A program made the position numbers and the translations under genes. The notes under the pieces were generated by a model that was not told the origin of the DNA, ran no database searches, and saw only the letters and a program-made list of their open reading frames with translations. Source: Eledone cirrhosa (Eukaryota). From it: 64,000 nt of DNA. Numbering within the stretch: position 1 is the stretch's first letter; the number at the start of each line of letters is the position of its first letter. This document shows, in pieces, positions 9,001-56,935 of the stretch. The stretch lies in the NCBI GenBank assembly GCA_964016885.1, contig OZ024741.1, positions 272,738,001 to 272,802,000 of the forward strand, in the 5' to 3' direction.

Positions 9001-9739
9001 GTCTCGTCCTGACTAGTAGGTCGCTAATTATCAGTCTATGTTGGGAGGTGCATTCTTCATGGGGGAGGGATTTAGTGTTTACAACAGACACTCTGTCACG
9101 TCTTCTGGTAAGGATATAATCTACCTGGCTTGTGTGTTCCCCCGATCTATAGGTGATCAGGTGATTGTCTTGTTTTTTGAAGTTAGTGTTACAGATAGTT
9201 AGGTTATTTGCGTCACAGAATTCCAGGATTCTGGAGCCTTCCTCATTTCTAGTATATATAGAGTAATGTAAATGTTATGTGAGATATTATGTGAGATAAT
9301 TATGTGTGATAAAAACTTTACCATGAAAATATAATAGTATAGAGTAATGTAAATGTTATGTGAGATGTTATGTGAGATAATTATGTAAAATAAAGACTTT
9401 ACCATGAAAATATAATAGTATATATATATAGAGAGTAATGTAAATGTTATGTGAGGCATTATGTGATATAAAGACTTTACCATGAAAATATAATAGTATA
9501 TATAGAGTAATGTAAATGTTATGTGAGATATGTGAGATAAAGACTTTACCATGAAAATATAATAGTATATATAGAGTAATATAAATTTTATGTGAGATAT
9601 TATGTGAGGTAAAGACTTTACCATGAAAATATGATAGTATATATAGAGTAATGTAAATGTTATGTGAGATATTATGTGAGGTAAAGACTTTGCCATGAAA
9701 ATATGATAGTATATATAGAGTAATGTAAATGTTAAAGGG
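6016..9739. mobile_element. piggyBac-type non-autonomous element (MITE) with internal minisatellites, interrupted by a LINE
   Basis: TTAA|CCCTTTAGCATTT at 6012-6028 and AAATGTTAAAGGG|TTAA at 9727-9743 (TIR plus TTAA TSD). The internal ~78-bp repeat stops at 6316 and resumes at ~9250. Confidence 0.8.
6317..9198 (-). mobile_element. 5'-truncated RTE-like LINE (end of APE, RT with a PHD-like Cys-rich insert, 3' UTR ending in (GAT)n)
   Basis: ORFs 7976-9091 and 6706-7926 carry NYRGIKL, EKAFD, GVHQGS, LLYADD, FRYLG and GRPRKTW; a break near 7970 separates them. Tail reads (CAT)n on + at 6317. Confidence 0.92.
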
Positions 9740-14811: not shown

Positions 14812-14847
14812 TCTTCTGATGAAGGACTAGTGTCCGAAACGTTAAGA
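14812..14847 (+). ncRNA. Minimal type I hammerhead ribozyme
   Basis: Stem I TCTT/AAGA; core CTGATGA plus an extra A; stem II GGAC-TAGT-GTCC; GAAA; palindromic stem III (AACGTT); GUU cleavage triplet. Confidence 0.75.
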
Positions 14848-14942
14848 CCCTCTTCCTGCTATTTCAAGCGTTAACCTAATAAATCCCTTCGATATACTGT
14901 ACCGATTGTGTTGTTATTTCTGTTTATATATATATATATATA

Positions 14943-19591: not shown

Positions 19592-19594
<3 letters not shown>

Positions 19595-19873
19595 GAAGTG
19601 GTTACACAACAGTTAGTTCACCATACCGAGAACAATTGTTTCACCTTAGCGGATCCTTAGCTCGGGATGTGTATGGTTATAGGAACAGGAAGGACAACCG
19701 TACGAACACAGGCAATACTAGACTGCGTGTGAGAGGTGTACGAGCTGAGGATCCGCTAAGGTGAAACAATTGTTCTTGGTATGGTGAACTAACTGTTGTG
19801 TAACCACTTCTACCTAACTCGTCCCTTGGACTGAGTGCTCTACCACTACGGATATTATCTTCCAGTGTTCCAC

Positions 19874-19880: not shown

Positions 19881-19913
<33 letters not shown>

Positions 19914-20651
19914 TAAACATGTCTATAGAATCACCAGATAAAATATATACCATTTCCTCTCCCAATTAGCATAATTATATATATATGTATGTCAGGTCAC
20001 CAGTTGGTGCTACTGGTAACATGTATCCCAGTACAACCTGTATCATGGTCGGGTCGTTGGCGACTAAACTGGCAACCCCACCAAGGTTTCTTGGTGAGGA
20101 GGGTGACTTTGGACATCCTGCAGGACTAAAACCAAAATCTGTCAAAGGGAAAAGGAGCTCTTAAGAGTCAATGGCCATCCAAAATCACCAGGAGAGATGA
20201 CCCCTTAGCCTTTGTCAAGGCAGAATTCTAGGAGAAGGAAAACTCTGATAGAACACCTGCAACCCTGATGGTATCCAATGATGTTGACTTGTTGTTCTTT
20301 TTGGTAAATATCATCTTGGTTAAGAGAGTGGGACTGGCTTTGTGCAGTGCCTTTGCTCACGATAAAAGCTTCACGGCACAGGCATTGCTTTATATCTGGA
20401 GATCTCTCTGCACTTGTCATCACATGGTACCTTGGGCCCAGCACTATGTGTCAATAATTGTCACAAGTGTAGTGTTTGTACCAGAGTTTTCAAGTCGCTG
20501 GCTGGACTAAAAAGTCACACTTATTCAGCGCATTGGTAGGGGTTCTCCTACATGGATATAAAGTAGTGGCCGTACTCGAAAACGAGTTGGCAGCCACCAT
20601 GTATATATATATATGTATGTATATATATATATATGTATATATATATATGTA

Positions 20652-23370: not shown

Positions 23371-23760
23371 CGTCATTTTTTTTTTCATTCTACGTCCGCT
23401 TTTCCCTGCTTGCAAGGGTGGGACGGGAACTGATTCTGGCTTGATTTCTACAGCTGGATGCCCTTCCTAACACCAACCTCATTTACAGTGAGTGCTGGGT
23501 GCTTTTTTTATGTGGTGCCGACACGTCCACTTTACAGTGTGGGCTGGGTGCTTATTTGCCGTGGCACCTCCACAACCACTTTGCAGTGAAATGAGAGGGA
23601 CCCCAGTCCCTATCATCTCATTTCTACAGCTGAGTAAACTGGAGCAATGTGAAATAAAGTGTCTTGTTCAAGGAAACAACACCTCACCTGGTCTGAGAAT
23701 TGAACTCACAACCATTTGATTGCAAGCCCAATGCTCTAACCACTAAGCCATGTGCCTCCA
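23371..23760 (-). mobile_element. tRNA-head SINE (same family as 15152)
   Basis: Near-identical body and head, with one extra internal ~43-bp repeat. Confidence 0.88.
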
Positions 23761-30030: not shown

Positions 30031-31886
30031 TCATCACCATTTTACGTCCGTTCTTCCACGCTAGCATGGGTTAGATGGGTTGTCCTGTTGTGGGCAGTGT
30101 CCAGTCAGCTGACCTTGTCTTGCTCATACAGGAGCTGATTCTGGCTTGATTTCTACAGCTGGATGCCCTTCCTAACACCAACCTCCTTTACAGTGAGTGC
30201 TGTGTGTTTTTTGTCCATGGTGCCTACACGTCCACTTTACAGTGTGGGCTGGGTGCTTTTTTTGCCGTGGTACTTCCACAACCACTTTACAGTGGGAGGG
30301 AGTGGGGGCATATTGTCTATATGCTTCAGCCTGGCAATCGTCGAACTGGAAAAAGCCTTTGACAGAGTACCCCGTACCATAATCTGGTGGGCTCTTAGAA
30401 AATTAGGAGTAGATGAATGGCTTGTGAAAGCTGTACAAGCCATGTATAGAGGAGCAGTCAGCAAAGTTAGAGTTAGCAATGACTATAGCGAGGAATTTAG
30501 CATACAGGTCGGTGTCCACCAAGGCTCTGTTCTTAGCCCTCTCCTGTTCATTATAGTTTTGCAGGCAATAACGGAGGAGTTTAAGACTGGATGCCCATGG
30601 GAACTCCTGTATGCTGATGATCTTGCATGTATAGCTGAATCCATGGTAGAACTAGAGAAGAAATTCCAAACATGGAAGCAGGGACTAGAAAGAAAGGGTC
30701 TCAAAGTCAACCTGACAAAGACTAAGGTTCTTGTAAGTAGATGAGAAAACAGAACCCAGATTCCCTCAGGGAAATGACCTTGCTCAGTATGTAGGAAAGG
30801 TGTAGGTAGGAACTCCATCCTCTGCCCCAAATGTAAACAATGGGTACACAAGAGATGTAGTGGGAGCACAGGAAGTTTAACTAAGAATGTAGGCTTCATA
30901 TGTAGCAGCTGTGCTGGGACAGCAAGCAGCAAATGACCACAGGTAATAAGCACCACCAAACTCTGGGAGGGCTCTGTAGAAACAGTAGACAGCTTCTGCT
31001 ACCTAGGTGACTGAATTAGCAGCAGAGTTGGGTGTTTGGAAAGTACAATAACTAGGGTAAGAACGGGATGGAAGAAGTTCAGGGAGCTACTGCCACTGTT
31101 AGCTGCAAAAGGCTTTTCCCACAAAATGAAAGGCAGACTGTATGATGCGTGTATACGAACAGCAATGTTACATGGAAGTGAAATCTGGGCCGCTGTCTGT
31201 AGAAGACTTGCTCAGATTAGAAAGAAATGAAGCTTGCATGCTCCGATGGATGTGTAATAGTAATATACACGAACGGCAAAGTATAAACAAATTGCGAGAG
31301 AGACTGAACATAAGAGGAATCAAATGCTGTGTGCAGGAGAGGAGGTTGCGTTGGTATGGACATGTGATGCATATGAAGGATGACAGCTGCATAAAAAGGT
31401 GCAGAGCACTAGAATTCGATGGAAGCCGCGGAATGGGGAGACCCAAGAAGACCTGGGATGAGGTGATAAAGGCCGACCTTACCCAATTGCACCTCTCAAG
31501 GGCAATGACACACGACCGTGACCTCTGGAGTCATGCAGTAATACAGAAGACCCAACACCCCACAGGAACAAGCCGAAGCTGAAGCATATAAACAATATGC
31601 CCCCACACCCTCCCACTGCAAAGTGGTCGTGGAGGCGCCACAGCCAAACAAAGCACCCAGCCCACACTGTAAAGTGGATGTGTAGGCGCCAGGGAAAAAA
31701 AGCACCCAGCACTCACTTTAAATGAGGTTGGTGTTAGGAAGGGCATCCAGCTGTAGAAATCAAGCCAGAATCAGTTCCTGTATGAGCAAGACAAGGTCAG
31801 CTGATTGGACACTGCCCACAACAGGACAACCCATCTAACCCATGCTAGCGTGGAAGAACGGACATAAAATGGTGATGATGATGATG
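30031..31886 (+). mobile_element. Truncated RTE-like LINE bracketed by an inverted copy of its own 3' end
   Basis: RT 30335-31582 (EKAFD, GVHQGS, LYADD; stops and frameshifts). 30031-30331 is the approximate reverse complement of 31576-31880. Confidence 0.88.
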
Positions 31887-36083: not shown

Positions 36084-37445
36084 CTAGCAGGGATTCACTG
36101 TACTCCCAAGGTATATGAAAAATTCCACAACCTTAAGGAGATTACCTTTCACATATATTTTAGGTTGCTGCACACCTCGACTAGGTGCAGGTTGACATAA
36201 AACTACCGTTTTCTTTAAATTTATAGTCAAGCCAAAGATTTCACATGCTGAATCAAATGTAAAAATCCACAATTGTAATTGATGATCAAGTATGGTTGAC
36301 TAGATCACAGTTATCTTATAAGTGGGGTGAACACTTTACTCTTAAATTTCATCCTTGCTAAATTTAAGACATATGATATCTTATATCTGTTCCTTCATTG
36401 TTGCTTTGGAAAACATAATAGGGCATAGCAGCAAAATATATTGCATAGAGAGTAGGTACATCAAGATCTTCCTCTTTCGCATCACTTTCCATTGCAAAAA
36501 AGGCTCAGACAATATGCTCCCAAAGTTAATTCAGGATTTTATATCTTTATGAAGAGCTTTCAATATATTTACACACTTTTGAGAGCATTCAGATTTAGAC
36601 AAAACCAACCACTAGCAGTAAACTGTTAACAGTATTGAATACCTTACTGAGATCAACAAAACAATGGTAAAGAGTGAAGTTCTGTTCAATACGTTTTTCC
36701 TGCAGTTGTCTGATTGTGAAGATCATATCATTGGTGCCTCTTTTCACATGAAAACCACATTGTAACTCTGATATGACTCTTGGCTCTATGAAAGTGTTAA
36801 GCCATTCCAAAAGGACAAATGCTAGAAGCCTACCAACAATAGGGAAATGTCCCTAAAATTATCATATTTGGTCTTTGGTACCAGATTTGAAAAAGGAAAC
36901 CAAGATAGAATCAACCCAGTCTTGTGGTACTTCCTCCCTTCTCCAACAATGAGACATTACTATATGTAAAAGTTCTACCATTTCCTCACCTCCATGTTTA
37001 AGAAGCTCAGCATTAATACCATCCAGTCCAGGAGATTTATTGCTATTTAATTTCTGTACATCAGACGCAATGTCATATCTAGTTGGTTCTGATGCCATTT
37101 CATTTACAATTGAGTAGCTTTTCATTGATTCAATAATGTTTATGTTGACATCGAAGGATCTGTTAAGGATTTCAGAGAAGTGTTCTACCCAACAGTTCTG
37201 AATGGAGACAATATCAGTCAAGAATGACTGACCATTTGTAGCTCTTAATGGTGCTGTATAAGAGGATTGAGGACTACACACTTCTTTAATGTAGGAAAAA
37301 AACACCTTAATGTCCTCTACTGCCTCTTTTCCTTGCTTGGCTTTGTCTTGCCACCATTGCAGCTTAATATTTCTCAAAGCATTTTGCACTTTTATTTTTA
37401 GTTGCTTATAAGATTAATTACAAACAGGATTGATTGAATCAATAT
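36084..37445 (-). mobile_element. Old degenerate RTE-like LINE fragment
   Basis: KSPGLDGINAELLKHGG, QCGF...DMIFTIRQLQEK, FVDLSKVFN and FGLTINLKKT...YLGS in broken frames. Confidence 0.8.
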
Positions 37446-37491
37446 ATATACGTATATCTCCCTCTCTCACCAACTCTCTCTCTCTCTCTCT

Positions 37492-37534
<43 letters not shown>

Positions 37535-37655
37535 TGTAATAAACAACATAAGATAATTATTCCATTTACCAGTGGTTTTTTGAAGATAGCCTACATAGAG
37601 CACTCTCTTTTCCTTTACCCTTCCTACGGAAATACTTCATTTATATATATATATA

Positions 37656-38152
<497 letters not shown>

Positions 38153-38308
38153 CATATATATATATACACACATATATATATATATAAATGAAGTATTTCC
38201 GTAGGAAGGGTAAAGGAAAAGAGAGTGCTCTATGTAGGCTATCTTCAAGAAATCACTGGTAAATGAAATAATTATCTTATGTTGTTTATTACATAACTAT
38301 ATATATAT

Positions 38309-39543
38309 ATAAAGATTTACATATACATAAACATAAAGTCATAGAGATATATGTGTTTTGCAACCGGTCACGTTGTGGCTCAATGAAGAATTAATAAATT
38401 AAATAATCAGAGCAATATATCATAAATCATGTCTTTAGAATTATTAGATAAAATATATACCATTTCCTCTACCAATTAGCATAATTAACCATATAAAAAA
38501 TCAATTAGACCAAGCTATTAGAATAAAGGCTCTTATGAAGAAATTTCCGATAAAGATATAATTCTTTCCGACAAAGATATAATTCCGGGAGAGATATAAT
38601 TACGGTATGTACGCATTTCTTCTAAGTTAGAATTTACACCTAATTGTGTATGGTTGACGGTATATTTAGTCAATTTCTACATGCTGTTGAAATGTTGGAT
38701 AAATACTCTATCGGGGCCACCGCGAAGAGGCTGCTTTCGGTTATTTGTCGGAAATTTCTTCATAGGAGCCTTTATTCTTATAGCTTGGTCTAATTGATTT
38801 TTTATATGGTTAATTATGCTAATTGGTAGAGGAAATGGTATATATTTTATCTAATAATTCTAAAGACATGATTTATGATATATTGCTCTGATTATTTAAT
38901 TTATTAATTCTTCATTGAGCCACAACGTGACCGGTTGCAAAACACATATATATATCTATGACTTTATGTTTATGTATATGTAAATCTTTATATTTAATAA
39001 TCTCCCGTTAGGTTGAGATACAATTGGGCGATATTGGGCTGCGCTTTCTAGCAACAAGCCTACCCGCCGTAAGCAACTAATCACATTCTTTCTAACTTGA
39101 CCACTGCCACGTCACGATTCTTAGCCATTTTTGAATCTATTTTTGGCGCGATCACTTTGGAAAATTAAATGTCTAATTTCGAGTTCACTCCTGATGAGTC
39201 CGATACTCTGGACGTATCCTGTTATTGGATGTCTAAAAGTGCGGAAGAAACCATGGTAGAGATATAATTACGGTATGTACGCATTTCATCTAAGTTTGAA
39301 TTTACACCTAATTGTGTATGGTTGACGGTATATTTCTACATACTGTTGAAATGTTGGATAAATACTCTATCGGGGCCACCGCGAAGAGGCCGCTTTCGGT
39401 TATTTGTCAGAAATTTCTTAATAGGAGCCTTTATTCTTATAGCTTGGTCTAATTGACTTTTTTATATGGTTAATTATGCTAATTGGTAGAGGAAATGGTA
39501 TATATTTTATCGAATAATTCTAAAGACATGATTTATGATATAT
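38309..39543 (+). mobile_element. Non-coding pLTR/retrozyme-like insert: inverted arm plus ~1.4 tandem 668-bp units with a hammerhead at 39188-39261
   Basis: 38309-38553 is the reverse complement of 38745-38992; 38590-38883 is repeated at 39258-39543. Fold: CTC-CTGATGA-gTCCG...CGGAa-GAAA-CCATGG-TA-GAG. Confidence 0.7.
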
Positions 39544-39569
39544 ATATATATATATATACATAAATATAT

Positions 39570-39831
39570 ATATCAACTATAAATAGATTGACATATATAT
39601 ATATAAAATAAATGGAACAATCACAGGGAATAATTTGTAAAGAATGTAAGCACACATAGCTAGGTAGGTAACTAATTAAAGTTTAACTAGAACTTCGAAT
39701 ATAGATACCTTTTAAAATGATTAATCATTTTAAAAGCTATCTAGTTAAACTTTAATTAGTTACCTACCTAGCTATGTGTGCTTCCATGTATTTATTTTAT
39801 ATATATAGGTTAATCTATTTCTAGTTGATAT
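39570..39831. repeat. Imperfect spacer-less palindrome centred on ATGATTAATCAT (~39722)
   Basis: AAGCACACATAGCTAGGTAGGTAACTAATTAAAGTTTAACTAGA is mirrored by TCTAGTTAAACTTTAATTAGTTACCTACCTAGCTATGTGTGCTT; outer arms ATATCAACTA/TAGTTGATAT. Confidence 0.85.
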
Positions 39832-39924
39832 GTAATGCTCGGATCTATTCATTGGAATCTTTGACCTTATTCTACAGTGGATATGGCGCATGTTTCTCAG
39901 ACATGACAACCCTTAATTTAATTT

Positions 39925-40058: not shown

Positions 40059-40910
40059 CAGGTTGCGAACGATATCTGTTCGCAAGATTACTGTCTAGGA
40101 AAAAATAACAGTAGTTTTATTTTTTAAGATATATTTATCAAACTTGGGTCAGTTTGTCTTCATGACTTGTTCTTTCGATCTCACTCGATAAACTCGCCAT
40201 TGGCTTTGATGACGGCCTCAAGGCGGCCTTGGAACCGGCTACAGGCCTTCGTCACTGTCCCCCGACACTTGTGATCCTGGCCTTCAGATCGTCTTTCGTA
40301 TTGCAGCTAGATCTGTTGGTGTCTCGTTCCACTGCGCCCCACACAAAGAAGTCGAGGGGGTTGCAGTCAGGCGAGCTGGGAGGCCAGATGTCAGGTGAAG
40401 TGTGGTCGACAAAGTTCTCTGACAGCCAGGCTTGGGTCTTTCGGCTGGTATGGCAGGGTGCTGAGTCTTGCTGCCACACGTACAGCCTACCTGCAGCTAC
40501 CTGGTTGATCCAGGGCTTTACTACCTCGCTAAGAATGCGGATGTAGCCATCGGTGTTTAGCTTGAGGCCCTCAGGGAAGAAGTGAGGTGGCATGACATCA
40601 CCTTGACTGCTGACGACACCTAAGTCCGATGTTGTCGCTGGAAACTTTGCCTGCATGACTCTGGGCACGTCTTTGGATGAGACACCATTCTCCTGCTGAT
40701 GCTGAGAAAGTGTGAAATTTCCTTATTTGTCCTCCCGGCGCGGATTCCAAGAAGAACTCCGTGTCTCTTCCACAAATTTGGAAGTTCAAAATTATTCATA
40801 ATCAATTATTCTGAAAATAAATAATGGAAATATAGTCACTGTTTTTATGAAGACAAGAGTGACAACGGAAGTAATAAAAATTTGCATCAACAGATGTCGT
40901 CCGCACCCTG
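40059..40910 (-). mobile_element. Internally deleted Tc1/mariner element, DD37D (maT) type
   Basis: TIRs CAGGTTGCGAACGATATCTGTT / AACAGATGTCGTCCGCACCCTG with TA flanks. ORF 40252-40668 has WQQDSAPCH...WPPSSPDCNPLD with 37 residues between the last two catalytic Asp. Confidence 0.9.
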
Positions 40911-41462
40911 TATATATATTGATTCAATCAATCCTAATTATAATAACTCTTATAAGCAACTAAAAATAAAAGTGCAAAATGCTTTGAGAAATATTAAGGT
41001 GCAATGGTGGCAAGACAAAGCCAAGCAAGGAAAAGAGGCAGTAGAGGACATTAAGGTGTTTTTCTCCTCCATTAAAGAAGTGTGTAGTCCACAGTCCTCT
41101 TATACAGCACCATTAAGAACTATATCCTCTTACACAGCACCATTAAGATATATATATATATTTATATATATAGATGCACACACACACACATATATATATT
41201 TTGACTCCATATAAGAAATCTAGAGTACTTAGTAAAATGCTAGTTGAGGTTGATATAATAATTCCAATAAAGGATTATTGATTACCATAAAAGGCCATGT
41301 TATGAGCAATGGCTAATGATTTGTATGGGAGGCTACATTTAGTTATATAGATTTTATATGTCATGTATTAAGGTGAATATGAAAGAACAAATGACTCCCA
41401 TATATTAATCCACTGGCCAATGAGGCCACACACAGTTACTCACTGATGTATGTATGTATGTA

Positions 41463-43474
41463 TATCTCTTTCTCTTAATTTCGAGTATTTTTTTTGACTG
41501 GCCACCTTCCTGGTGGCAAGGTTGTAAAAGAAAAGAAATTGTCATCCCTTGAATCGCAAGAATGTTTTGCAAATTTTGAAGGTGCCAGCTATCGCAGCCA
41601 TTTGTAGACTATGAATTAGGGAGCTGCGCTTTTTGTCCGCAAATCCAAGTTCAGTCATACTTTGGTCCAAGCGGGTTGGTATATAACCCGTAGCTCCAAT
41701 AATGATGGGTATGAAGCTAAAGGTGTATCTTGGATACTGGATTTGTAAACTCCTCATCAATGGTCCGTAGATGTCCTCCTTCTCCTGTATTTTTCTGACA
41801 ACGTTTACATCAAGTGGGCAGCTGATCTCCACAACAGAACACGTTCTCAATGTGTGGTCCCAAACAACAATATCAGGCCGGCTGTGCTTTAATTTGGTGG
41901 CCGTTTTTATTTTCAGGTTCCACCAGTATTCCTTAGTGCCAGCTGTCTCTATATATTCCTCCTCGTTTGTTGTTAATTTTGTTTTCCGAAGTGCGTTCCA
42001 GATGGTTCTAGCTATCCCTTCGTGTCTCATGGGGAGGTAGTAGCGAGATGACATTCTTTCGCAGCTGGCAACAATGTGGCTTACATCCTCGATCTGTGTT
42101 TTACATAGCCTACATTTATTGTCAGCTGCTGGCCCTCCTCTTTTGTGCAGCAGATATTTGGTAGGGAGTTCTTGTTCCTGTATTGCATAACACAGTAAAA
42201 ACCTCCCAGCCCCACACTGTAAATGTGGTTGGTGTTAGGAAGGGCATCCAGCTGTAGAAAACCCACCATACAGTCCTATGCAAGCAAGACAATCACTCTT
42301 GCCTCAAGTGGGAAAACCCCTGTCCAAACCCATGCAAGCGTGGAACACGGACGTTAAACGTTGATGATGATGATCATGATATCCCTCAAGGTGCGATGTC
42401 ATAAACTTGTCGGAACTCCATGCCAGGCTTTTTGAGTGGTTTATCCCCTCTATGGTCTGTGTTTTACGTCTCAAGTATTCATGCACATGTAAATTGGTCA
42501 ATTTTTTCATCTTGTTTGAACATTGAATAGGATCTTCCGATTTCTCTGGGTGAGAGATTTATATCAGGCTTTATTCCATATCTCTCCTCCAGATCAGTGG
42601 CTATTCTAATGATTTTTTTTTTCATGCTCATAAACCTGGGAAAGATGGTCGCCAACCTTTTTCCTCTGTTGAAGATGTTGCTTCAGTGTTACTATCCAGG
42701 TCTCATATGATGTTAATATTGATTTTAGACCCCGGCCACCTTCCTTGCGTGAGAAGTATAGCCTATCCACATCACCATTGATGTTAAAGTTCCCAGTAAC
42801 ACTGAGAAGTTTGCGAGTTCTAACATCCATCTCACTTAGTTCTTGCAATGACCAGTTCAGCAGGCCAAATGTTGGCGTTAAAATTGGCACAGCATAAGTA
42901 TTGTGGGCAATGTATTTGTTGTACGCTGACAGTTCTGATGACCATATTTTCTTTACTCTTCTGAGGTATTCAGTTCTGGTTCTCTCCTTATTTATGGGTC
43001 CATCATATCTGACATTCTCATCCTGTCCAAGATATCTGTAGTTGTCACCTGACTGTAGAGGTTGTATTGTCAGGCCGTTCATCTCTAGATTTCTAGAGGA
43101 GGGCACAGCTCTTCCACGTTTTACTGCCAAATATGCACACTTGGACTCACCAAATTTCATTTTGATGTCGGTTGAAAATTGTGTAATGAGGTCCAATTGT
43201 TTTTTGATGTCATTGATATTTGGCCCATACAACTTCAGGTCATCAACAAAGAAAAGATGGGAGATACTTCTGGGCCCACTTCTTTGTCCACCTTGTTTCC
43301 TGAGTAGGTAAGATAGTGGATTCAGTGAGAGAACGAAGAGTAGCACTGACAAGCTATCACCCTGAAAGATGCCCTTCTGGTAATGTATCTTATCAGTCTT
43401 AACCTGCTCCTTCTCACCTCTAAGGATCAAATTGGTGTACCAGTTCTTGGTCAGGCATTCAACAGCAGCTACCA
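41463..43474 (-). mobile_element. R4/Dong-like RLE-bearing non-LTR element, 5'-truncated copy 1 (SINE-tail insert at ~42189-42380)
   Basis: GIFQGDSLS, FFVDDLKLYG, YRYLG, RKEGGRGL; C-terminal RHEGIA...RPDIVV...EISCP...KEDIY; 3' end abuts (TATG)n. Confidence 0.85.
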
Positions 43475-43614
43475 ATGTATGTATGTATGTATGTATGTAT
43501 GAATGTATGAATGTATGTATGTATGAATGTATGTATGTATGAATGTATGTATGAATGTATGAATGTATGTATGTAAGTATGTATGAATATATGTATGTAT
43601 GTATGAATGTATGT

Positions 43615-46600
43615 TATCTCTTTCTCTTAATTTCGAGTATATTTTTTTGACCGGCCACGTTCCTGGTGGCAAGGTTGTAAAAGAAAAGAAATTGTCATCC
43701 CTTGAATCGCAAGAATGTTTTGCAAATTTTGAAGGTGCCAGCTATCGCAGCCATTTGTAGACTATGAAATAGGGAGCTGCGCTCTTTGTCCGCAAATCCA
43801 AGTTCAGTCATACTTTGGTCCAAGCGGGTTGGTATATAACCCGTAGCTCCAATAACGATGGGTATGAAGCTAAAGGTGTATCTTGGATACTGGATTTGTA
43901 AACTCGTCATCAATCGTCCGTAGATGTCCTCCTTCTCCTGTATTTTTCTGACAACGTTTACATCAAGTGGGCAGCTGATCTCCACAACAGAACACGTTTT
44001 CAATGTGTGGTCCCAAACAACAATATCAGGCCGGTTGTGCTTTAATTTGGTGGCAGTTTTTATTTTCAGGTTCCACCAGTATTCCTTAGTGCCATCTGTC
44101 TCAATATATTCCTCCTCGTTTGTTGTTAATTTTGTTTTCCGAAGTGCGTTCCAGATGGTTCTAGCTATCCCATCGTGTCTCATGGGGAGGTAGTAGCGAG
44201 ATGACATTCTTTCGCAGCTGGCAACAATGTGGCTTACATCCTCGATCTGTGTTTTACATAGCCTACATTTATTGTCAGCTGATGGCCCTCCCCTTTTGTG
44301 CAGCAGATATTTGGTAGGGAGTTCTTGTTCCTGTATTGCATAACACAGTAAAAACCTCCCAGCCCCACACTGTAAATGTGGTTGGTGTTAGGAAGGGCAT
44401 CCAGCTGTAGAAAACCCACCATACAGTCCTATGCAAGCAAGACAATCACTCTTGCCTCAAGTGGGAAAACCCCTGTCCAAACCCATGCAAGCGTGGAACA
44501 CGGACGTTAAACGTTGATGATGATGATCATGATATCCCTCAAGGTGCGATGTCATAAACTTGTCGGAACTCCATGCCAGGCTTTTTGAGTGGTTTATCCC
44601 CTCTATGGTCTGTGTTTTACGTCTCAAGTATTCATGCACATGTAAATTGGTCAATTTTTTCATCTTGTTTGAACATTGAATAGGATCTTCCGATTTCTCT
44701 GGGTGAGAGATTTATATCAGGCTTTATTCCATATCTCTCCTCCAGATCAGTGGCTATTCTAATGATTTTTTTTTTCATGCTCATAAACCTGGGAAAGATG
44801 GTCGCCAACCTTTTTCCTCTGTTGAAGATGTTGCTTCAGTGTTACTATCCAGGTCTCATATGATGTTAATATTGATTTTAGACCCCAGCCACCTTCCTTG
44901 CGTGAGAAGTATAGCCTATCCACATCACCATTGATGTTAAAGTTCCCAGTAACACTGAGAAGTTTGCGAGTTCTAACATCCATCTCACTTAGTTCTTGCA
45001 ATGACCAGTTCAGCAGGCCAAATGTTGGTGTTAAAATTGGCACAGCATAAGTATTGTGGGCAATGTATTTGTTGTACGCTGACAGTTCTGATGACCATAT
45101 TTTCTTTACTCTTCTGAGGTATTCAGTTCTGGTTCTCTCCTTATTTATGGGTCCATCATATCTGACATTCTCATCCTGTCCAAGATATCTGTAGTTGTCA
45201 CCTGACTGTAGAAGTTGTATTGTCAGGTCGTTCATATCTAGATTTCTAGAGGAGGGCACAGCTCTTCCACATTTTACTGCCAAATATGCACACTTGGACT
45301 CACCAAATTTCATTTTGATGTCTGTTGAAAATTGTGTAATGAGGTCCAATTGTTTCTTCATGTCATTGATATTTGGCCCATACAACTTCAGGTCATCAAC
45401 AAAGAAAAGATGGGAGATACTTCTGGACCCACTTCTTTGTTCACCTTGTTTCCTGAGTAAGTAAGATAGTGGATTTAGTGAGAGAACGAAGAGTAGCACT
45501 GAAAGATGCCCTTCTGGTAATGTACCTTATCAGTCTTAACCTGTTCCTTCTCACCTCTAAGGATCAAATTGGTGTACCAGTTCTTGGTCAGGCGTTCAAC
45601 AGCAGCTACCAGTGGTTGTGGGACTTTGGCTAACTGTAAAGCCTTAATAATCCACCCATGAGGTACACTATCAAATGCTTTTTTGATAGTCCAGCCACAC
45701 CACAGTCATGTTTCTGCGATTCTTTGTTGTTTTTTCTTGAATCATTTCATTTGTTAGTAGGTGATCTATGCAACCCCACACCTCCCTCTTTCGACCAGCT
45801 TGCTCAGGTGTTATAATGTTGTTGGTAGCACAATGATCCTGTAAGAACAGGTTAAGGCACCCAGTATATAATTTATACATGATGTTTTGGCAGGCTATTG
45901 GGCGGTAATTTTTAGCAAGGGTGGTTTGGCTATTTTTGGGAATGAGGAGAGTAGTGGCAGTTGATAACCATTTGGGCAGTTCTTGTGTGACTTTAATGGT
46001 TTCTCTAAACAGCCGTATGAGATCTTGCCGATAGAAAGTGAAATTCTTCAACCAGTATCCTGTTATGAGGTCTGGTCCTGGTGATTTCCTATTCAACATA
46101 TTCTGTAGAGCTGTTTCCAGTATTGACCCATCTATGTAGTATTGTTTTGTCTGGACATGTTGGCAGTAGTCCTGTTCCAGTTCTTTTAGCCATTTAGTTT
46201 GTCTGTTGAATCTGTCATCCGTTTCCCATACAGATCTCCAGTAACTCTCAACCTGCTCTTTTGAAGGGGTGTCATTTACAGAGATTGAGCTTTTGCCACC
46301 GAAGCTGCGATAAACTGATTTAGGATCTCTGGCAAACAATCTATTTAGCACTTGTCGTTTATGTGCTGTTGACTTATATTTTAGTCTTTATGATGTAGCT
46401 GTGAGTTGTTGTTTCAACTGGTGTAATTTAGAGTTTAAAGTTTTAAATTTTGTATCTCTAAATCGTCTCTCTAATTTTTTTTTTTACGTCTTCCTGGTGT
46501 CGTGTGAATTTGCTCTCTATGGTGCATTTCATAAAGACTGCGATGTGTGAGATACTTCGTCTCAGGGACAAAATTTTGCTTTTTAAATTTCGTATCCACA

Positions 46601-46690
46601 CTGGTTCAGGCTTTTTGTTTGAATCTTGATTGCGTGGTTTTAGATGTTTTTTATATGATAGCAATGTGACAGCTGAAACATATAACAAAA
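43615..46690 (-). mobile_element. R4/Dong-like element, longer copy 2 (same insert at ~44342-44533)
   Basis: Near-identical to copy 1 at a 2153-bp offset, then continues with KSPGPD, NYRPIAC and WLDYQK. Confidence 0.87.
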
Positions 46691-46691
46691 T

Positions 46692-47237
46692 GTGTCGAAT
46701 GGGCAGGCTACATCCACAATCAGGCACAATCTTTTTTCCTTGTCCAACACCACCAGGTCAGGTCTATTGTGTTCCAGTTTCTTGTCCATCTGTATCCTAA
46801 AATCCCACAGCACCTTCACTTGATCGTTTTCTATCACTAACTCTGGCTTATGCTCATACCACTTCTCAGAATGTGGTAAATTGTTTACTTTGCATAGGTG
46901 CCAGTGGATCACCCTGCCCATCACATCATGTCTCCAGCCTTTATAGTGAGTCTGGGCTAGGTGTTTACACTCGGATACAATGTGAGCCACAGTCTCCTCT
47001 CTCTCTCCACAGATCCTACACAGTGGGCTAGCCTCCTCCTTGTAAATATGGTGTTTCAGCCACTTCGTTTTGAGGGCCTGCTCTTGCGCAGCCATTAGCA
47101 TTTCTTCTGTAGCCTTTTTAAGGTTTCCTCTTTTCAACCAGTTCCATGTTTGTGGATCTCAGTTTTCTCAAAGAAGGTACAATGAAGGGATTTTTCATGA
47201 AGGTTTCTCTTTCTCCTTGTTGTTATTTCCTCCTTGG
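46692..47237 (-). mobile_element. R4-like 3' fragment, second family (CCHC plus RLE)
   Basis: AAQEQAL...CRICGE..ETVAHIVSEC...RHD...NRPDLVV...DVACP; same family as 57170-58040. Confidence 0.8.
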
Positions 47238-49067
47238 ACAATCACTGGTATTGTAATGGCCTTGAGGTGCCACATTTTCTCAATTTCAATAAGCAGGTCT
47301 TTATATTTTCGTAGCTTGTCAAATTCTTTTGCCGCGATATAGTGATCACATGGGATGCTCATATCTATCAATAAACAGACCTTGTTATGTAGGCACATGG
47401 CTTAGTGGTTAGAGCATTGGCCTTGCAATCGAAAGATTGCGAGTTCAATTCTCAGGCTGGGTGATATGTTGTTTCCTTGAGCAAGACACTTTATTTTCCA
47501 TTGCTCCAGTTTACTCAGCTGTAGAAATGAGATGATAGAGACTGGGGTCCATATCCTTCCACTGCAAAGTGGTCGTGGAGGTGCCACGACAAAAAAGCAC
47601 CCAGCACTCACTGTAAATGAGGTTGGTGTTAGGAAGGGCATCCAGCTGTAGAAATCACGCCAGAATCAGTTCCCGTCCCACCCTTGCAAGCAGGGAAAAG
47701 TGGACGTAAAATGATGATGATGATGATGATGTCAAATTCTTTTGCCGCGATATTGTGATCACATAGGATGCTCATATCTATCAACAAACAGACCTTTTTA
47801 TATTGATCTTTTATAATGATGTCAGGTCTATTTGCTTTTATGGTCCTGTCAGGAAAGTCCTAGAGAATTGTTACTTTTTCTCCTTCAGTTACAGCCTCAG
47901 TGTGATGATTGTACCACTTGTCTTCAGCTTTGATTTTGTAATGCCGACATATTACCCAGTGTAGATATTGGCCAACTCTGTCATGTCTATATTTGTATTC
48001 TACTGGTGCTAAAACTTTACATCCAGAGACTAAGTGATCCTCTGTTTCAACCTCAGCATTGCAGAATTGGCACTTTGGGTTTATTCCGTTTCTCATCACA
48101 TTGGCCTGGTAATTACGAGTCAATAAGCTTTGATCTTGGGCAGCTAAGATGACGCCCTCACTCTCCGCCTTTAGCCCTGAACTACGTAGCCACTGATGGG
48201 TGTGCTTTTGGTCAAGATCAGCTTGTTTGCTATGGGCCACATATTTGCCATGCAGAGGTTTCTGCTCCCAATTTGATGCTAATTGTCCTTGCCCTTTTGC
48301 TTTTGCCAGTGAATTTATGTGCCTAGCAGCATCAGTTGCAACAGTTTCTTTAGTCTGTCCAGCCTGGGTATCAAGCACGAGATCAATAGCATATTTTATG
48401 CTCTCCTTCAAGATAGAATGACGCTTCTTACTTCTCTCATGCTTTTCAACAAGTTTCAGCATACAGTCGTTAGTTGTTTCAAGGTATTTGGACAGTCCAA
48501 TGGTCGTGGTCTTGTAAGCAAGTTCAAATTGGATCAGGCCACGGTCTCCTTGAGTTCTAGGAAGGTAAAGACGATCCACATCTGCTTTTGGGTGGTGCAT
48601 CCTATTACAGGTCAGTAGCTTACGGACTTTGGTGTCGATTCTTTTGATTTCACTCATATTCCAGTTCAACACACCGAAGCTATAAGTGACAACTGGGACT
48701 GCCAAGGAATTTATGGCTAGCACCTTGTTACGAACGTTTAGTTCTGTTCTCAGAACTGCACGTACTCTCCTGTAACATTCTTTCCTTATCCTCTCTTTCA
48801 TACTTGCATGCTGTATGCCAGAGCCCTCATTAATCCCTAAGTATTTATAGGTTTGTTCCTGCTCAAGTTCCTTTATGATTGTTTCAGCCTCCAATTCAAC
48901 TGAGTCTGAGTTGACAAGCTACCCCTTCTTGAAAGTGGCTTTTGCACACTTGTCAAGTCCAAACTCCATCCTGATGTCATCGCTAAAAGTTTTTACTGTC
49001 CGCAAAAGGCCTTCCAGTTCGTCATTATCTTTGCAATATAGCTTCAAATCATCCATATAAAATAGGT
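47238..49067 (-). mobile_element. R4-like fragment, third family, interrupted by a tRNA SINE (47391-47730, + strand)
   Basis: YMDDLK, YKYLG, MHHPKADVDRLY, AAQDQSL, CQFC..H...C, RHD, IDMSIP. Confidence 0.82.
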
Positions 49068-49091
49068 ATTATTATTATTATTATTATTATT

Positions 49092-51312
49092 ACAGTTGCA
49101 TTTATCTTGCTTTATGTTCATACGAGTTATCACAAAGTCACAACCAGTGACCTCAAGAGACAACAAGGTCCGCCATGTTCAAGAAAGAACATACATACAC
49201 ACACATGCATCTTTAGGTGTTTAGACTTGTGATGTACTTATATTGACAGAATCTTCCTTAGTATATGGGCAGTTCCCATTCGTACTATCTTTTGTATTTC
49301 TCCTATATGTGGGTTTCCTGGGATTTGCGATAAGTAATCATTAGACCCCTTAGGTATCATTCCTATAGCGCCTACAACCACTAGTATTGTTTTAGTTCTC
49401 AATTTCCACATTTTTCCAATTTCTATCTCCAGGTCCTTATACTTGCTCAATTTTTCAAATGTTTTTATAGATACATTCTTGTCTCTTGGAACGGACATAT
49501 CAATTAGCAGGCATACCCTATTTTTAAAGTCCTTCAGTATTATATCTGGTCTATTTGCATCTATTTTTCGGTCTGTTTGGATGCTAAAGTTCCACAAGAT
49601 TAAGATGTGGCCTTTTTCAAGTACGGGAGGTGGTTGATGCTCCCATCAATTCTTTTGATGAGGCAGGTCAAAATGCTTACACATTACCCAATGTATGTAT
49701 TGTGCAGCTCTGTCATGCCTGTTTAGGTATTCGGTTGGAGCTATAGGACTGCACATTGAAATTATATGATGAATGGTCTCTGGTTGTTTTTTACATACAC
49801 AGCATAAGGGGTTGCATCCATTTTTTATGATGTTGGCTTGATCATTTTTTTGTTGGCAGACACTGATCTTGTGCTGATATAATCAGTCCTTCAGTCTCCG
49901 ATTTCAGTCCAGAGGATGCCAACCACTGATGGGTTAAAGTTTTGTCAACATCAGGATTGTTAGCTCTTTCTGGGTATTTTCCATACAGAGGCTCTTCTTG
50001 CCATTTCTTAGTCAGTTTCTGTAGCAGTTCTTTCTTTGCAGTTACTTTTACCTGCTTTGCTTTTTCTGTGTTTATCATTTCAGCAGTAAAGGGAACATCT
50101 GAAATTTGTAGTTTATTACTGTATCTTTGTGCATATTTTGTAATGGAGTATGATCTTTTGATGCTTTCATGTTTCAAAACGAGTTTGATCATCCAATCAT
50201 GTGCCTCCCTTAGATATGTAGATAATCCAATTGTTGCAGTTTTCAAAGCAATATCTAACTGGATTAATCCATGTCCTTCTTCTTTCCTAGAGAGAAATAT
50301 TCTATCTCTATCTGCCTTAGGGTGATGCATTCTGTGCATGATTAAGAATTTTCTAATTTTTGTATCAAGCCTACGGATTTCTGTGCTTGACCAGTTGATG
50401 ATATTGTAACTGTAAGTTACTACTGGTATGGCAAGCGGGTTTATGGCATCGATCCTATTCCTTGCATTCAACTCCGTTCTTAAGATTGCTCTAACTCTGC
50501 GGGAACATTCTTTCCTTATCCTTTCCCTCAATGTCGAGTGCTTGATTCTGTTTTCTTCACAAACACCTAGATATTTGTAAATTTCCTCTGATCAAGTTCT
50601 CTTATAACATTCCCCCGATCAAGATTAATGTCTGAACTTCTCAGCAGCTTTCCTCTGGTGAACGTGGCTTTGGTGCATTTATCTAGTCCAAACTCCATAT
50701 TAATATGATCACTGAACTGCTTCACAGTGGATAATAGCCCTTGCAACTGCTCATCATTTTTTGCAAATAGTTTCAGGTCATCCATGTAGAACAAGTGATT
50801 AATGGTTTTGTCATAGACTTTATATCCATGTTTTGTTTCATTGAGCATTTTACTTAATGGTATAAGTGCGATGCAGAATAAAAGCGATGATAAAAAGTCA
50901 GCCTGAAAAATTCCACAATTAATATTAACTTCTCCAGCTTCCAGTGATTTTTTTTCACTGTTCAAAAGGAGTGTCGTTTTCCATGTTTTCAGACTGAATG
51001 ACAGGAACCTCCTGACAACGGGAGATATTTTGAAAATCTCTAAATACTTTTCAATCCAACTGTGTGGCAAACTATCAAATGCTTTTTTGTAATCTATCCA
51101 AGCAATTGATAGATTTTTGTGTCTATTATGACAATCTTCCAGTATCATTTTGTTAATTAAAAGCTGATCTTTACAGCCATATGAGCCTCGTTTATATCCT
51201 TTCTGCTCATTGGGAAATAGATCATTTGTTATCAGGTGATCATATGTATATTCAGTTAGGATTGATGTTAAGATTTTATACGTTGTGGTCAAGAAAGTTA
51301 TCGGTCTGTAAT
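49092..51312 (-). mobile_element. R4/Dong-like fragment, fourth family, 3' end in (TAA)n
   Basis: ORFs 50567-51292, 49842-50531 and 49238-49597: WIDYKKAFD, FYMDDLK, NRPDII, IDMSVP, KLSKYKDL. Confidence 0.85.
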
Positions 51313-51333
51313 TTTATTATTATTATTATTATT

Positions 51334-54300
51334 GGTCTGTTCGGACGTCTTTTTGCTTGCTCCCAGTAAGTCGCTTTATTTACCTGTTATAATTATTTGT
51401 TGTTAAATTGTTCTTGTTGCGTAAGGGATAAAAGCCCTTGGACTTTGCCCTGTGAAGGGGAAAGTATAATATTTGGGCCTTTTGGCCCAAACATCTGAAC
51501 ATTTTACTTAAAAAAAAAAAAAAAAGACATGGCTGAGCGACGACCCCCAGCAATATGTCTGCTGTCATGTAACAACAGCGTAAAAGTTGAGAGGAGGGTT
51601 ACAGAAATTGATACAACAAACACCACCACAAACAACGTGAACAAAGACAACAACACTGAGAACACTAATTTAAAACAAATTACCACACCAACTACAACAA
51701 TAACAGCGACAACCAAAATACAGAAAACAGAAAAAAATGACAACAAATGCAACAACCACTAACAAGAAAATAGAGGATAACACCAACAACAACAATACAA
51801 ATTGCACCGAAAACAACAACAACGGTGGCACCAAAAACACAACCAACTACAACATTGATAACAGCAACAACACTGTTTGTATCAGTAGCAACAGCAACAC
51901 CACCAACAACAAGACAAGAAGCAGCAGTAGCGGCAGCAATAATGGTGCCGCTGAAAAAGGGGCCACTTCTTTCGCAGGTGTGGCCCGAAATATAGAGACA
52001 GTGATAGTCACGGAGGAGGAGATGGCTGCTGCAAGAGCCATAGTGACAAGAAATGACGATAGAGTTTTCCGGAAACCTCCACCCGATTTCTTCAAAGACC
52101 AACAGCTGCGCACGGTGACTTACCACACCATAAACACCATAAGCAAAATGTCACATTGGGTGGAGAGAGCCACAGAGGCTCAAATCCAAAAGGCTTTGGG
52201 GTGCGTCTGGGCACGCAAAACCCACATCACCCGAGGCAAAAAGTACGCCACAGTAGACGTACTTTTCGCCCCCCCCCCCAAGAAGCTAAGTCTCACTCTT
52301 TGGAAACCCTAAAGAGTGAGGAGATAGTCTTGGTGCCCTCCTACCGCGGGCAGAAAATTGTGAGAGTCAAAGTGACCCAGGTTTTGCCCGACGTGCCCAT
52401 ATCTTGGCTGGCCGCATCTGTACTGGCTGGAATCGAGAAGACCACCATACTGCAAATACAGAGAATGGGAAGAGAGAACTGGTCAGGAATAGGCATGCTA
52501 ATACAAACTGACCAGGACAGCATCGAGGCTATCCCAGACATCATAGACCTCAAAGAAGGGCTCCAACTCCCTATAAGCATGGAAGGAAGGCGCCCAAAGT
52601 GCTATCTCTGTAGGCAGAAGGGTCACCTCAGGGCTTTCTGCCCGCAGAAGACAGCCAAGAAGAGGGCCCCCCATCCTTCTGACGCCTGATCCGTTGCTAC
52701 CAAGAGCAGGGCAGGCAACAGAGGCAGAAGACCTTTCCATGGTGAGTAGGAGGGCAACGTCTGTGGAACTCATACCAAGGCCACGGACTACTAAAACAGT
52801 GGCAGCAGTGGTGGCAACACCAACAGTCGCAGTAGTTACACCGGCGGCAAAATCGCCTGAGCGGGCTCCACTACCACCACCAACAGCAGTGGAGCTCATA
52901 CCCCTCCCAGATGCCATGGAATCCGACATGGAAGTGGCAAACGGTCTGCCACAAAAAACAAAAAAACAAAAAAAAACAAAAAAACCCTTAGCTTCACCCT
53001 CCAAAAGCGAAGGCAAACAAAGAGGGGTAAAGGCTGCAAGGAGACTTGCAGCAACGCCACCACCATCACCATCACCACCACAAGCATCACCGCCAACAAC
53101 AACCACACCACCACCACAAGCATCACCACCAACAACAACCACACCACCACCACCACCATCACCAAAAACACCAACATTGCAAACACAACAAAACACATAC
53201 ACCCAGCAGCAACAACAAGAAAACAGCAACAAAACCACCCCTCCCCCCAAAAAGTACACAGCCATAAACATGGCAAATAAAGAACTCTTATAACATAGAA
53301 AGCAGCACATAGACATCACAGAAAAAAATTACTACACCTCACCAACACCAAGAACTCTCCCGAAAAATATAAACATCATTGAAATTAAAATAGAACGTTA
53401 CAAACTTTTAAAAGAAAAATTCTCCAACGCAGTTGGAGACTTCAGAGAGTCGGTTACCAAAAGGATATACACCAACATCATCTTGGAAATACCCATGACC
53501 AGCCAAAGGGGCGGTTCTACTGTCCCTTCCCCACACGATCAAGGTAAGTGATCCTTTCTCACTTACCCCATTTCTCATCCAACATGGCCGTACTTAGAAT
53601 AGGCAGTATAAATGTACGTGGCCTGGGGTCATCTTGGAAGCAGGGTCACCTGCTCAACGACCTCAGGTCAGTAAACATAGATGTGGTGGCAATCAGCGAG
53701 ACCAGAATCTCCGAAGCACGAGCCTTCGCACCAATCTTCGGCTACGATGTATATGCATCTCCCAGCCGTCCAGGATCGGGGGGGGGGGGAGGAGTAGCTG
53801 TGCTTTTTCTGAGAGGCTTGGATCTCGCCATACAGACCATCTTCCTGAACCCAGAAGGTAAGTCGGTGGTTCTGTACGTGACCGGCAGTGAAGGCAATTC
53901 TTTCAGGCTAGTAGCCGTCTACGCCCCAACCGGGACAGGATGGCCAGATTTCTTCAGACCTCTAGAGACCTTTCTTGGGATGTCCCGCTCTTTAGTATTA
54001 GTGGGGGACTGGAACGGTATCTTAAATGCATGCTTGGATTATGTGGGACTAGTAGACAGAGCAGGAGGGTGTAACAGCCTCAACAACCTGCTCAGACGTT
54101 TTGAACTGTCTGACAGGTATCGACTGGATTATCCGAATGTGCCAATGTGGACATGGGCAAACCGCATCGGGTTATCCAGATCGTATTTAGATAGAGTATT
54201 CTGTAGGGAAATAGATAAGGCTAGTGTAGGTTGTCCACAATTTAAAGTAGTCGACTACACGGACCACAAATTCGTGATCTGTGAAGTTGACTTAGATAGA

Positions 54301-56935
54301 CGCCATAAGCAAGGGCCTGGTTACTGGAAGCTGAACGCTTCATTCCCGGCGCGCAAAGCTTACAGAGTCCGGATTAGCGAATTAGTTAAGTGTGCATTGA
54401 CGGGTGCGATCGTCATCAACAGGTGGTGGTTTACCCTGAAAAGGGCTATTTGAGTAGAATTGGTAAGGTTTAGCAAAGGAGTAATGATAGAGGAAAATAG
54501 AGTAGAGGGAGAGTTAGTTAGAAAGCTAGAAGAGGCGTTTAGGACAGGCATCGCAACCGACGTACTTGCGATGAGATTGGGCCGGATCGGACTATGGACT
54601 TCGGTGCATACCTCGATGGACCATCGCAGCTCTCAACCACCGCAGCACAGTGCTGCGAAAAGCCGATAACAGCAGGTGAAATAGGGGAAGCGATGTCTGA
54701 CTGCACAAGGGGTAAATTGCCAGGTTTGGATGGTCTGCCCTAGGAGCTTTATGCATATATGCCAGACTTGTCCGGCGACCTCTTGGCAGATGTCTACTGC
54801 AACTGGCAGCAGAACGGGAGCATTCCCAGTTTTGTGAGCCAGGGAGCGGTGGCGTTGCTGAGAAAAGATCCGAACAAGGGGGACGTTACAGACAACTTCA
54901 GGCCCATAACTCTGCTAAACGCAGAGTTTAAGATTTTGGCCAAGGTGTTAGCAAAGAGATTGGCGCTTGTCGCCGGTGATCTGGTGGGAGAGGCGCAGAC
55001 ATGCGCCATTCCGGACAGATCCATCCACGACAACCTCCATCCCATGCGATACATCATAGAGAGGGTGGTTAAGGAACCTGGAACGAGTGGGGCCCTGATC
55101 AACTTGGATCAATCTAAAGCATTTGATAGGGTCGACCATTGGTACCTGGCTGTCGTCCTTGAGGCAGCCAACTTCAGGCCCTTTTTAGGGGTTGGATCGC
55201 TGCGATGCAGAGCGACATCTGTTCGATTGTGAGGGTGAATGGTCACCTGTTGCATCCTTTCAGCATCATGCGCTCGGTCCGCCAGGATTGCCCCCTCTCG
55301 TCCCTCTTGTACGTACTGGCCCTCAAGCCGTTACTGCACAAATTGGAGATGATGAGGGGGGTCCCCTGCGAACTGGGGTGTGGGAGCTTACGCTGACGAC
55401 GTCACCATGGTGGTGTCAAGCACCAAACACAGCCAGATGCTCAGCCCGCTCTCATGGAATATGAAGCAGTGACAGGAGCAAAAATAAACCAGGAAAAGTT
55501 GGTGGGTTGCAATTCGGCACCTGGAGAGGCAAGTTCATGCCGTCCGAAGGACTGGTTGAATTGCTCAGGGTCTGGTTCGGTCGGGACCTCCAGATGAAGA
55601 AAAACTGGAGTGAGGTGATGAGCAGGGTGGCCTCTCTCACCCAGAAATGGGCCGAGAGGAGGCTGTCTCTGAAAGGTCGGGCAGAGGCGTTGAATGCGTA
55701 CATCGCGTCCATCATCTACTACCGCTTGACCGTCGTACTTTGTCCCACCCAACTCTGACCAAATTGGAGCACCTTCTCTTCCGCTTTTTGTGGAAGGGAC
55801 ATGCTCCCATGGTCAGACGATCCCTTTGCTGTCAACACCCATTGCGTGGAGGACTAGGCATGCTGTGGCTGATGATGCGCAAACATGCGCTGAGGCTGCA
55901 ACATCTCTGGTGCTTCCTTGACGGTGAACAGATGTGGTCGCCGTTTGCCAGACGCGCTTTGCCCCAGCTCATCTCCTTGATGGAGCTGCAGTTCTGGATC
56001 AGGAAAAGACCGAGGGATAGCGCTTGGAAGCTGGAATGTCTCCAAGCGCTCACCGCCCTCTACCAGCTGGGCACTTGTATCGGTGGAACATCCACCTCGG
56101 CGTTCCATAGAGGGCTAGTGGAGGGAAATAGCGACAACGTTCTCGGGGAGACCCTGGGCGTCGAAGAAGATCAGCCGTTCACTCTCTTCAAGAGAACTTT
56201 CAGACCGGGGCCTATGGACAACTTCCAGAAATCCTTGGCCTGGCAGTGCTACCGGGGAGCATTGCCGGTTCGGGATAAGCTCTACAGGTACGCTCTTGTT
56301 CAGGATTGCTGACTTGTGGAGCTATGTCGAACAGCTGGTGTCGCGTGTAGGACGGATCCGGTTATCGACTGAATCCATTGTGCAGATAGCCCCGCCATCC
56401 TCCCTTAAAGAGGAGGATGGCGGGGCAGTTTTCATCTGCCTGGTGGCCATGGCGAAAGAGATTGTGTGGTGGACAAGGTTGAAAGGGTTAAAGACAGACA
56501 CTTTCCTCTTCGGCGAATCCCTAATTAACTCTTTCAAGTTTCACTTGAAGAGGAAAATCAGGCTGGAGAGGCAAGTGCTGTCTTCTAGTAAGTTTGTTGA
56601 AAGGTGGGTAAAAGTGGCGAGTCTGGTTCGAGTGAACGGGCCCGCTCTAAGTATGCGCCTGTAGACTGAGGAGTGGGAAAACTGAGAGAGGGCGCTTGCC
56701 CTGGTGGTCAGGATGGCCGTGGTATTTTGTGTGATTTTTGCCACGAGTGACCCTCGGAGGTTTCCCCCTTTTTGGCGAATTTTTGTTGTTTGAATTTTTT
56801 TTTATTTCTATCCTGATTTCTATCTTGTTACAACCTGTTTACACGACCAAAACCCACTTTGTATCTTCCTGTACTGTTCTGTGTTGTCTCTAATGTTTTT
56901 CTTCATGTTAGCCCTTGTGGCCAATAAAGAAAGCA
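51334..56935 (+). mobile_element. Near full-length degenerate L1/Tx1-like LINE between (ATT)n tracts
   Basis: ORF1 pieces with CYLCRQKGHLRAFC; ORF2 53584-56664 with APE (INVRGL, SET, GDWN, DRVF, TDH) and RT (NFRPITLLN, DQSKAFDRV, YADD). AATAAA near 56923; (ATT)n at 51311-51333 and 56935-56982. Confidence 0.88.

Follow-up and report, generated by a model that had tools for sequence, protein, structure and literature searches.

Insertion ends at a predicted hammerhead cut site in a Penelope-style tandem repeat of Eledone cirrhosa

Introduction

Why should a genomic repeat begin at the very nucleotide where its own ribozyme is predicted to cut? This question is raised by a locus in a 64,000-nucleotide stretch of Eledone cirrhosa DNA (C2:272738001-272802000 within a genome of 3.0 Gb; "the window" below is this whole stretch), where the direct arm of an insertion starts at the predicted cleavage site of a hammerhead. 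The available portions of two papers show why the answer would matter: the role of hammerheads in Penelope-type elements is called unclear in PMC8557442, and evidence from in vivo is said to be lacking in PMC4209133. Throughout, +1 is the first base after the predicted cut, which is G 39259 or G 38591 in the window.

The insertion and its surroundings

The locus is a single insertion of a non-coding tandem repeat of ~660 nt that carries a minimal type I hammerhead, that is, a non-LTR retrozyme. Two arms lie head to head, Penelope-style, in (TA)n, in the order (TA)n, inverted arm from +406 back to +154, 35-nt filler, direct segment, (TA)n; the tract on the left side of the target site occupies 38298..38311 and that on the right side 39537..39559. 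The inverted arm (38304..38554, minus strand) spans the unit from +154 to the "long" fixed 3' end at about +406, and matches 38744-38996 at 97%. The direct segment runs from +1 through a whole unit, ribozyme included, to +293 of the following unit. It is made up of a 668-nt unit from predicted cut to predicted cut (38591..39258, plus strand), which forms long tandem arrays elsewhere, and a second, partial unit (39259..39543, plus strand), which has a 9-nt deletion and extends from +1 to the "short" fixed 3' end at +293. No stop-to-stop frame of at least 150 aa is present between 37413 and 40252.

The earlier note on this DNA had described a direct copy upstream of the hammerhead, starting at 38590/38591, and this copy is confirmed: it matches 39255-39543 at 94% over 298 columns, 668 nt upstream. 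Uninterrupted identity sets in at A 38590 (equivalent to 39258), one base before the predicted cut, and beyond a single mismatch G 38587-38588 provide two extra matches. An inverted arm ahead of the direct copy, as also described, is indeed there, but the filler between them (38555..38589, plus strand) is templated, not "scrambled". Two 21-nt repeats, 38544-38564 and 38565-38585, each join the end of the inverted arm to bases about +2 to +11 past the cut site, as if templated synthesis had been repeated at the join; filler of the same kind is seen at L072 and L198. The direct segment passes one site (39258) and stops at the next, so no more than one of the two sites can have been cut in its template. 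A small fragment of the same family, previously placed at ~19908-19977, proved to be a separate short insertion at 19906..19985 (minus strand), covering unit +213 to +293, with an 89% match over 81 nt and its 3' end on (TA)n.

The window holds a second, unrelated minimal hammerhead at 14813-14850 on the plus strand, with a 4-bp stem II, a palindromic stem III and a (TA)n tract about 75 nt after it; this is probably the 3' remnant of another Penelope-type family. Further inverted pairs (37481-37656 with 38172-38347; 39567-39834; 19593-19812; 37239-37451 with 40910-41122) are found around or beside the locus, most of them bounded by (TA)n, and are likely to be stacked two-armed insertions of other families. 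Other features are a long 15-nt satellite with strong strand skew from 1 to about 5500, a tRNA-like Rfam match at 23693-23750 (minus strand) that is probably a SINE head, and, among 6706-9274, 21581-22291, 30139-30744, 41542-51313 and 53548-54453, broken LINE-type reverse transcriptase/endonuclease frames, one of them with a PHD finger match, plus a DDE_1 transposase fragment.

A predicted hammerhead shared by the family

All parts of the hammerhead reported at 39188..39261 (plus strand), with its cut predicted after 39258, were located: CTC at 39188-39190, CTGATGA at 39191-39197, stem II at 39198-39246, GAAA at 39247-39250, GTA at 39256-39258 and GAG at 39259-39261. Stem I has 3 bp and stem II 49 nt, and stem III, ACCATGGT, is palindromic with a loop of 2 nt, a form that the accessible text of PMC4209133 describes as working in dimers. 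At the gathering score, an Rfam search of the window matched only the tRNA-like sequence and not the hammerhead, whose long stem II and 2-nt loop III place it outside the usual form.

Across 30 copies drawn from both of the family's subtypes, the ribozyme core (CUGAUGA, GAAA, NUH) is invariant (30/30). The named fold pairs 88.7% of cells in these copies, versus 29–40% when it is slid; the paired fraction is 97.8% in stem III and 88.7% in stem II, and inner stem I pairs in 29–30 of the 30. The pair that closes stem II is G-C in 13/30 and A-U in 11/30, and covariation is confined to two pairs and inherited by subtype, so that it represents few independent events. The motif folds no better than shuffled sequences (z -0.4 to -1.0), and an unconstrained consensus fold did not give the hammerhead.

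Stem II had been described as carrying an insertion of ~40 nt. That claim has to be withdrawn, the long stem being found in 32/32 and 30/30 aligned copies: the 49-nt extended hairpin is a family-wide trait. The window copy does have A in place of C at the closing position of stem II, a change shared by 3 of 32 aligned rows, and two more stem II changes that are absent from every other row of the 32-row alignment; its G-A mismatch at the closing pair may postdate insertion. One subtype mostly has a 6-bp stem I, and the window copy belongs to the other. Among the listed units of the C1 array, the pair closing stem II is mostly an A-A mismatch.

The repeat family and Penelope-type proteins

Three exact family motifs occur 603, 276 and 378 times in the genome. 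A DNA search returned 2568 candidates; such a search selects copies that span the ribozyme, and it was left out of the break counts. Long head-to-tail arrays are found on C1, C3 and C4, with a spacing of 648–670 nt and a hammerhead in successive units. Arrays of dozens of units are seen at L329 (C4:175569800-175573800), L032-L047 and L336-L348. The C4 array opens with an ordinary inverted arm, and hence arrays may begin as normal insertions.

At 90 loci the 3' ends on (TA)n are fixed, 73 of 135 outer ends lying at +293 and 42 of 135 at +404 to +409, and 45 of the 90 loci have an inverted partner. Among 155 loci, 71 distinct ones are two-armed: 42 pair a short with a long 3' end head to head, one is short-short, one long-long, one tail to tail, and in the other 26 at least one end lies elsewhere. 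Fixed 3' ends, a tail at one end, variable 5' truncation and an inverted partner constitute the anatomy of a Penelope-mobilised insertion. Median divergence is 3.05% between the two arms of a locus (96 pairs), 3.2% between tandem units (72 pairs) and about 8% in the family. The element fits the animal non-LTR retrozymes and is in that respect of a known kind; its unit is without a frame for reverse transcriptase plus GIY-YIG endonuclease and repeats head to tail, and is not an autonomous Penelope-like element.

The genome contains 10,596 GIY-YIG candidates, with open frames of up to 1096 aa that have a cysteine motif before the endonuclease, and long reverse transcriptase-endonuclease frames, one such family having a minimal hammerhead of its own. 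Penelope-like elements with open frames of 551–1096 aa are found at L320, L321, L322 and L325, the last of these being a mirror-image pair whose arms each contain a minimal hammerhead. In 39–40 of the 10,596 candidate loci (30 loci plus 10 longer ones), DNA similarity revealed no autonomous partner of the repeat; the sole similarity, at L219, is a copy of the repeat preceded by a TA tract. When 39 GIY-YIG loci were searched with a profile, the best E was 0.15. CCAAT-like words that appeared by eye to be common to the repeat and autonomous elements are not significant.

Copy ends peak at the first nucleotide after the predicted cut

The possibility, raised with the original observation, that breakpoints of other copies are random relative to the cut site was tested genome-wide, and they are not: 5' ends form a one-nucleotide peak at +1. 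The whole-genome patterns combined an anchor motif with a demand for non-family bases slightly upstream. With the motif +1..+22, 12 of 603 copies pass the upstream-break filter, all of them true breaks (10 at +1, 2 at -1), compared with about 1.2 expected (p 5e-9). A second pattern, with a window of 12 positions, gave 28 matches, two of which were dropped as out of range; 13 of the 26 in-range breaks fall at +1, 3 at -1 and 10 over -2..-11 (p 3e-8). The third, with a different window, gave 41 matches (30 checked on loci, 11 judged from the matched text), and after 20 read-through copies with small deletions had been dropped, 7 of 21 breaks lie at +1, 2 at -1, none at +2 or +3 and 12 over +4..+11 (p 1e-3). 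As the three sets share events, they amount to 16 distinct loci at +1 and, counting the window, 4 at -1. L317, L319 and L018 each have one arm that also begins within two bases of the cut.

How often copying stops at the site was estimated from samples anchored on two motifs at +24, among the matches listed (the first 100 of 276 and the first 100 of 378). Sample 1 comprises 80 regions and 10 further loci, with one listed locus omitted, and sample 2 comprises 48 regions and further loci, with array rows omitted. The 5' ends in these samples are scattered over the unit at about 0.2% per base between +24 and -200. When each arm is counted once among the matches listed, 2 of 152 arms that reach +1 stop there, 0/88 in the subtype of the window and 2/64 in the other, and all 13 arms that reach a second site pass through it. 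Given its measured pass rate of 0.44, the +1..+22 filter implies about 4% of copies, and the anchored samples give 1.3%. Stops at +1 therefore account for about 1–4% of copies reaching the site, a peak 6- to 20-fold over background; read-through copies make up more than 95%. Farther upstream, family-wide 5' drop-off rises from about 0.2% to 0.6–0.7% per base at -364 to -520 in both 3'-end classes, the increase beginning where copying moves beyond +293, the start point in the upstream unit; a roadblock of bound protein or strand displacement may be responsible.

Two control sites away from the ribozyme, searched with the same design, have 1 of 9 breaks at the anchor edge in total, a small set counted from pattern matches. 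Control site 1 gave 5 matches, one of them read-through, with 0/4 breaks at the edge; control site 2 gave 19 matches, 13 of them from one array and one other read-through, with 1/5 at the edge. Microhomology is 0–1 nt in 14/14 arm junctions; at five loci, where the seed search ended short of the arm end, junctions were read by eye. With the four fold-back junctions dropped, 9 of 22 breaks still lie at +1 (p 4e-5). The partners joined at peak loci are plain flank in 6–7 cases and otherwise arms starting at +5 to +279, and since they differ, the peak does not stem from one master copy; L062 and L070 have a common junction and different outer ends. The subtype with a mostly 6-bp stem I supplies about 13 of 19 peak loci; the window copy is of the other subtype.

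Position +4 holds 4 of 81 ends in one anchored sample, at least as many as +1 holds there, and the filter of the third pattern is blind to such ends. All four are joined to (TA)n through the element's ATATA, and may reflect ordinary microhomology or +1 ends that were trimmed. A cluster at -102 was rejected as an artefact of aligning one subtype to the other.

From breakpoints to a mechanism

The origin that the earlier note proposed for the template, an RNA whose 5' end was made by self-cleavage, is supported by the +1 peak of copy ends as a minority route. For the window locus we favour, with moderate confidence and on the basis of sequence comparisons, a copy of the non-coding hammerhead repeat inserted by a Penelope-type protein, the direct arm of which would end at run-off from a ribozyme-cut RNA end. 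In such an insertion, the retrotransposon protein would cut (TA)n DNA, and both cut DNA ends would prime copying inside the RNA, at +293 and at about +406. Copying would head toward the 5' side of the RNA, usually across uncut or re-ligated ribozyme sites, and would fall off at random points; where the site had already been cut, in a few percent of passes, the copy would end at +1. End-joining would then link the two cDNA ends, leaving templated filler.

The template may instead have been a ligated RNA circle, on which reverse transcriptase occasionally stalls at the unusual ligation bond, so that the peak would still record cleavage in the cell without a free 5' end; we consider this possible, if rather doubtful. 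According to the accessible sections of PMC7229834, the RNAs of other animal retrozymes are mainly circular. More than 95% of arms pass the site, and the window and L071, two of 20 peak loci, pass one site and stop at the next. Tandem units are as alike (3.2%) as the two arms (3.05%), which would be expected from copying one circle twice, although a young homogeneous dimer would give the same equality. Moreover, the roughly threefold rise in drop-off beyond -364 is alike in both 3'-end classes and not clearly tied to each copy's own start, as it should be on a circle, and the animal ligase RtcB leaves an ordinary bond, which also speaks against a stall. Drop-off following one complete turn fits circle and multimer alike. 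Cleavage in vivo follows from either explanation, run-off from a cut end, which we favour, or a stall at a ligation scar, and that one of the two applies is in our view quite probable.

It is also conceivable that the family peak is real and the window copy broke at the cut by chance, an explanation we regard as unlikely, ranging from a slim chance to a slightly larger one. Identity in this copy begins at -1, not +1, and two more bases match past the mismatch; however, A is the commonest flank base at -1 (38%), and the templated filler accounts for both additional G (+14, +15), having itself copied the stretch from +2 onward twice. The background of 0.2% per base and the 0/88 sampled arms of its subtype that stop at +1, among the matches listed, favour chance, yet the same-subtype loci L067, L068, L208 and L071 do stop there. 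That the peak formed without any cleavage, whether because copying paused on the folded ribozyme, because transcription began at +1 or because short repeats made a hot spot of repair, is very improbable: 7–9 peak loci are indeed near-palindromic, and in them the second arm begins at +5 to +32, next to short palindromes, but a stem I pause would fall at +4 to +7, microhomology is just 0–1 nt, the peak persists without fold-backs, partners are diverse (plain flank, arms from +5 to +279) and a cap-like G at -1 is found in only 4/16 loci.

Significance

Dead copies of the repeat, thousands in number, would serve as a fossil assay of the hammerhead in the germ line. Judged from the genome sequence, it is likely that the minimal hammerhead cleaves in vivo, that cut RNA can act as a template, that no more than a few percent of sites have been cut by the time they are copied, and that the normal 5' end is not set by cleavage. 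In the literature covered, which included few subscription journals and no supplements, no paper maps genomic 5' ends to the hammerhead cut in Penelope-type elements, and the nucleotide-exact +1 peak appears to be new evidence on an open question, with a modest effect size. A one-base peak of insertion ends supplies both in vivo evidence and a number (1–4% per pass) from a genome alone, and any other genome lends itself to the same 5'-end test. Since most copies read through, the models are limited to templates that are mostly uncut multimers or circles. If the proposed reading is true, the stop rate of each subtype could be read as ribozyme activity in the animal.

Comparison with known systems

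As far as they are described in the available text of PMC7229834 and bioRxiv 10.64898/2026.07.22.740005, animal non-LTR retrozymes resemble the present element in having a non-coding tandem unit with one type I hammerhead each, in occurring as monomers, dimers and long arrays, and in a reported unit range of 51–972 bp that includes ours. They typically measure ~300 bp, whereas the unit here is longer and its minimal ribozyme has a 49-nt stem II. Their mobilisation by Penelope-like elements has been proposed, and where genomic copies begin relative to the cut is not mapped in the same portions of these two sources.

Penelope-like elements with minimal hammerheads in their pLTRs, as presented in the consulted parts of PMC4209133, PMC8557442 and PMC11167929, share with our repeat an inverted 5'-truncated partner, partial tandems, a tail at one end, (TA)n targets and two internal start points of reverse transcription, and their hammerheads share a short stem I, a long stem II and a palindromic stem III. 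Insertion anatomy as seen here is described in PMC8557442 and the two start points in PMC11167929. In contrast to these elements, the repeat has no reading frame, a tail of about 113 nt rather than 30–40, and no DNA similarity to the autonomous elements examined (39–40 loci). For Poseidon of Anolis, the relevant section of PMC11167929 reports that cleavage was dispensable in vitro and that no RNA reads began or ended at the site. We count this result against the run-off explanation; in Poseidon the cut shows no RNA ends, whereas here DNA ends peak at it.

The nearest precedent for a link between cleavage and junctions is R2 with its HDV-like ribozyme, where cleavage defines the 5' junction of inserted copies and junctions are variable when the cut lies at the end of the element (PMC3774820, in the part available). 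The present repeat would likewise tie ribozyme cleavage to 5' junctions, with a different ribozyme and in another class of element; the cut that provides the standard 5' end in R2 would define the end of a few percent of copies here.
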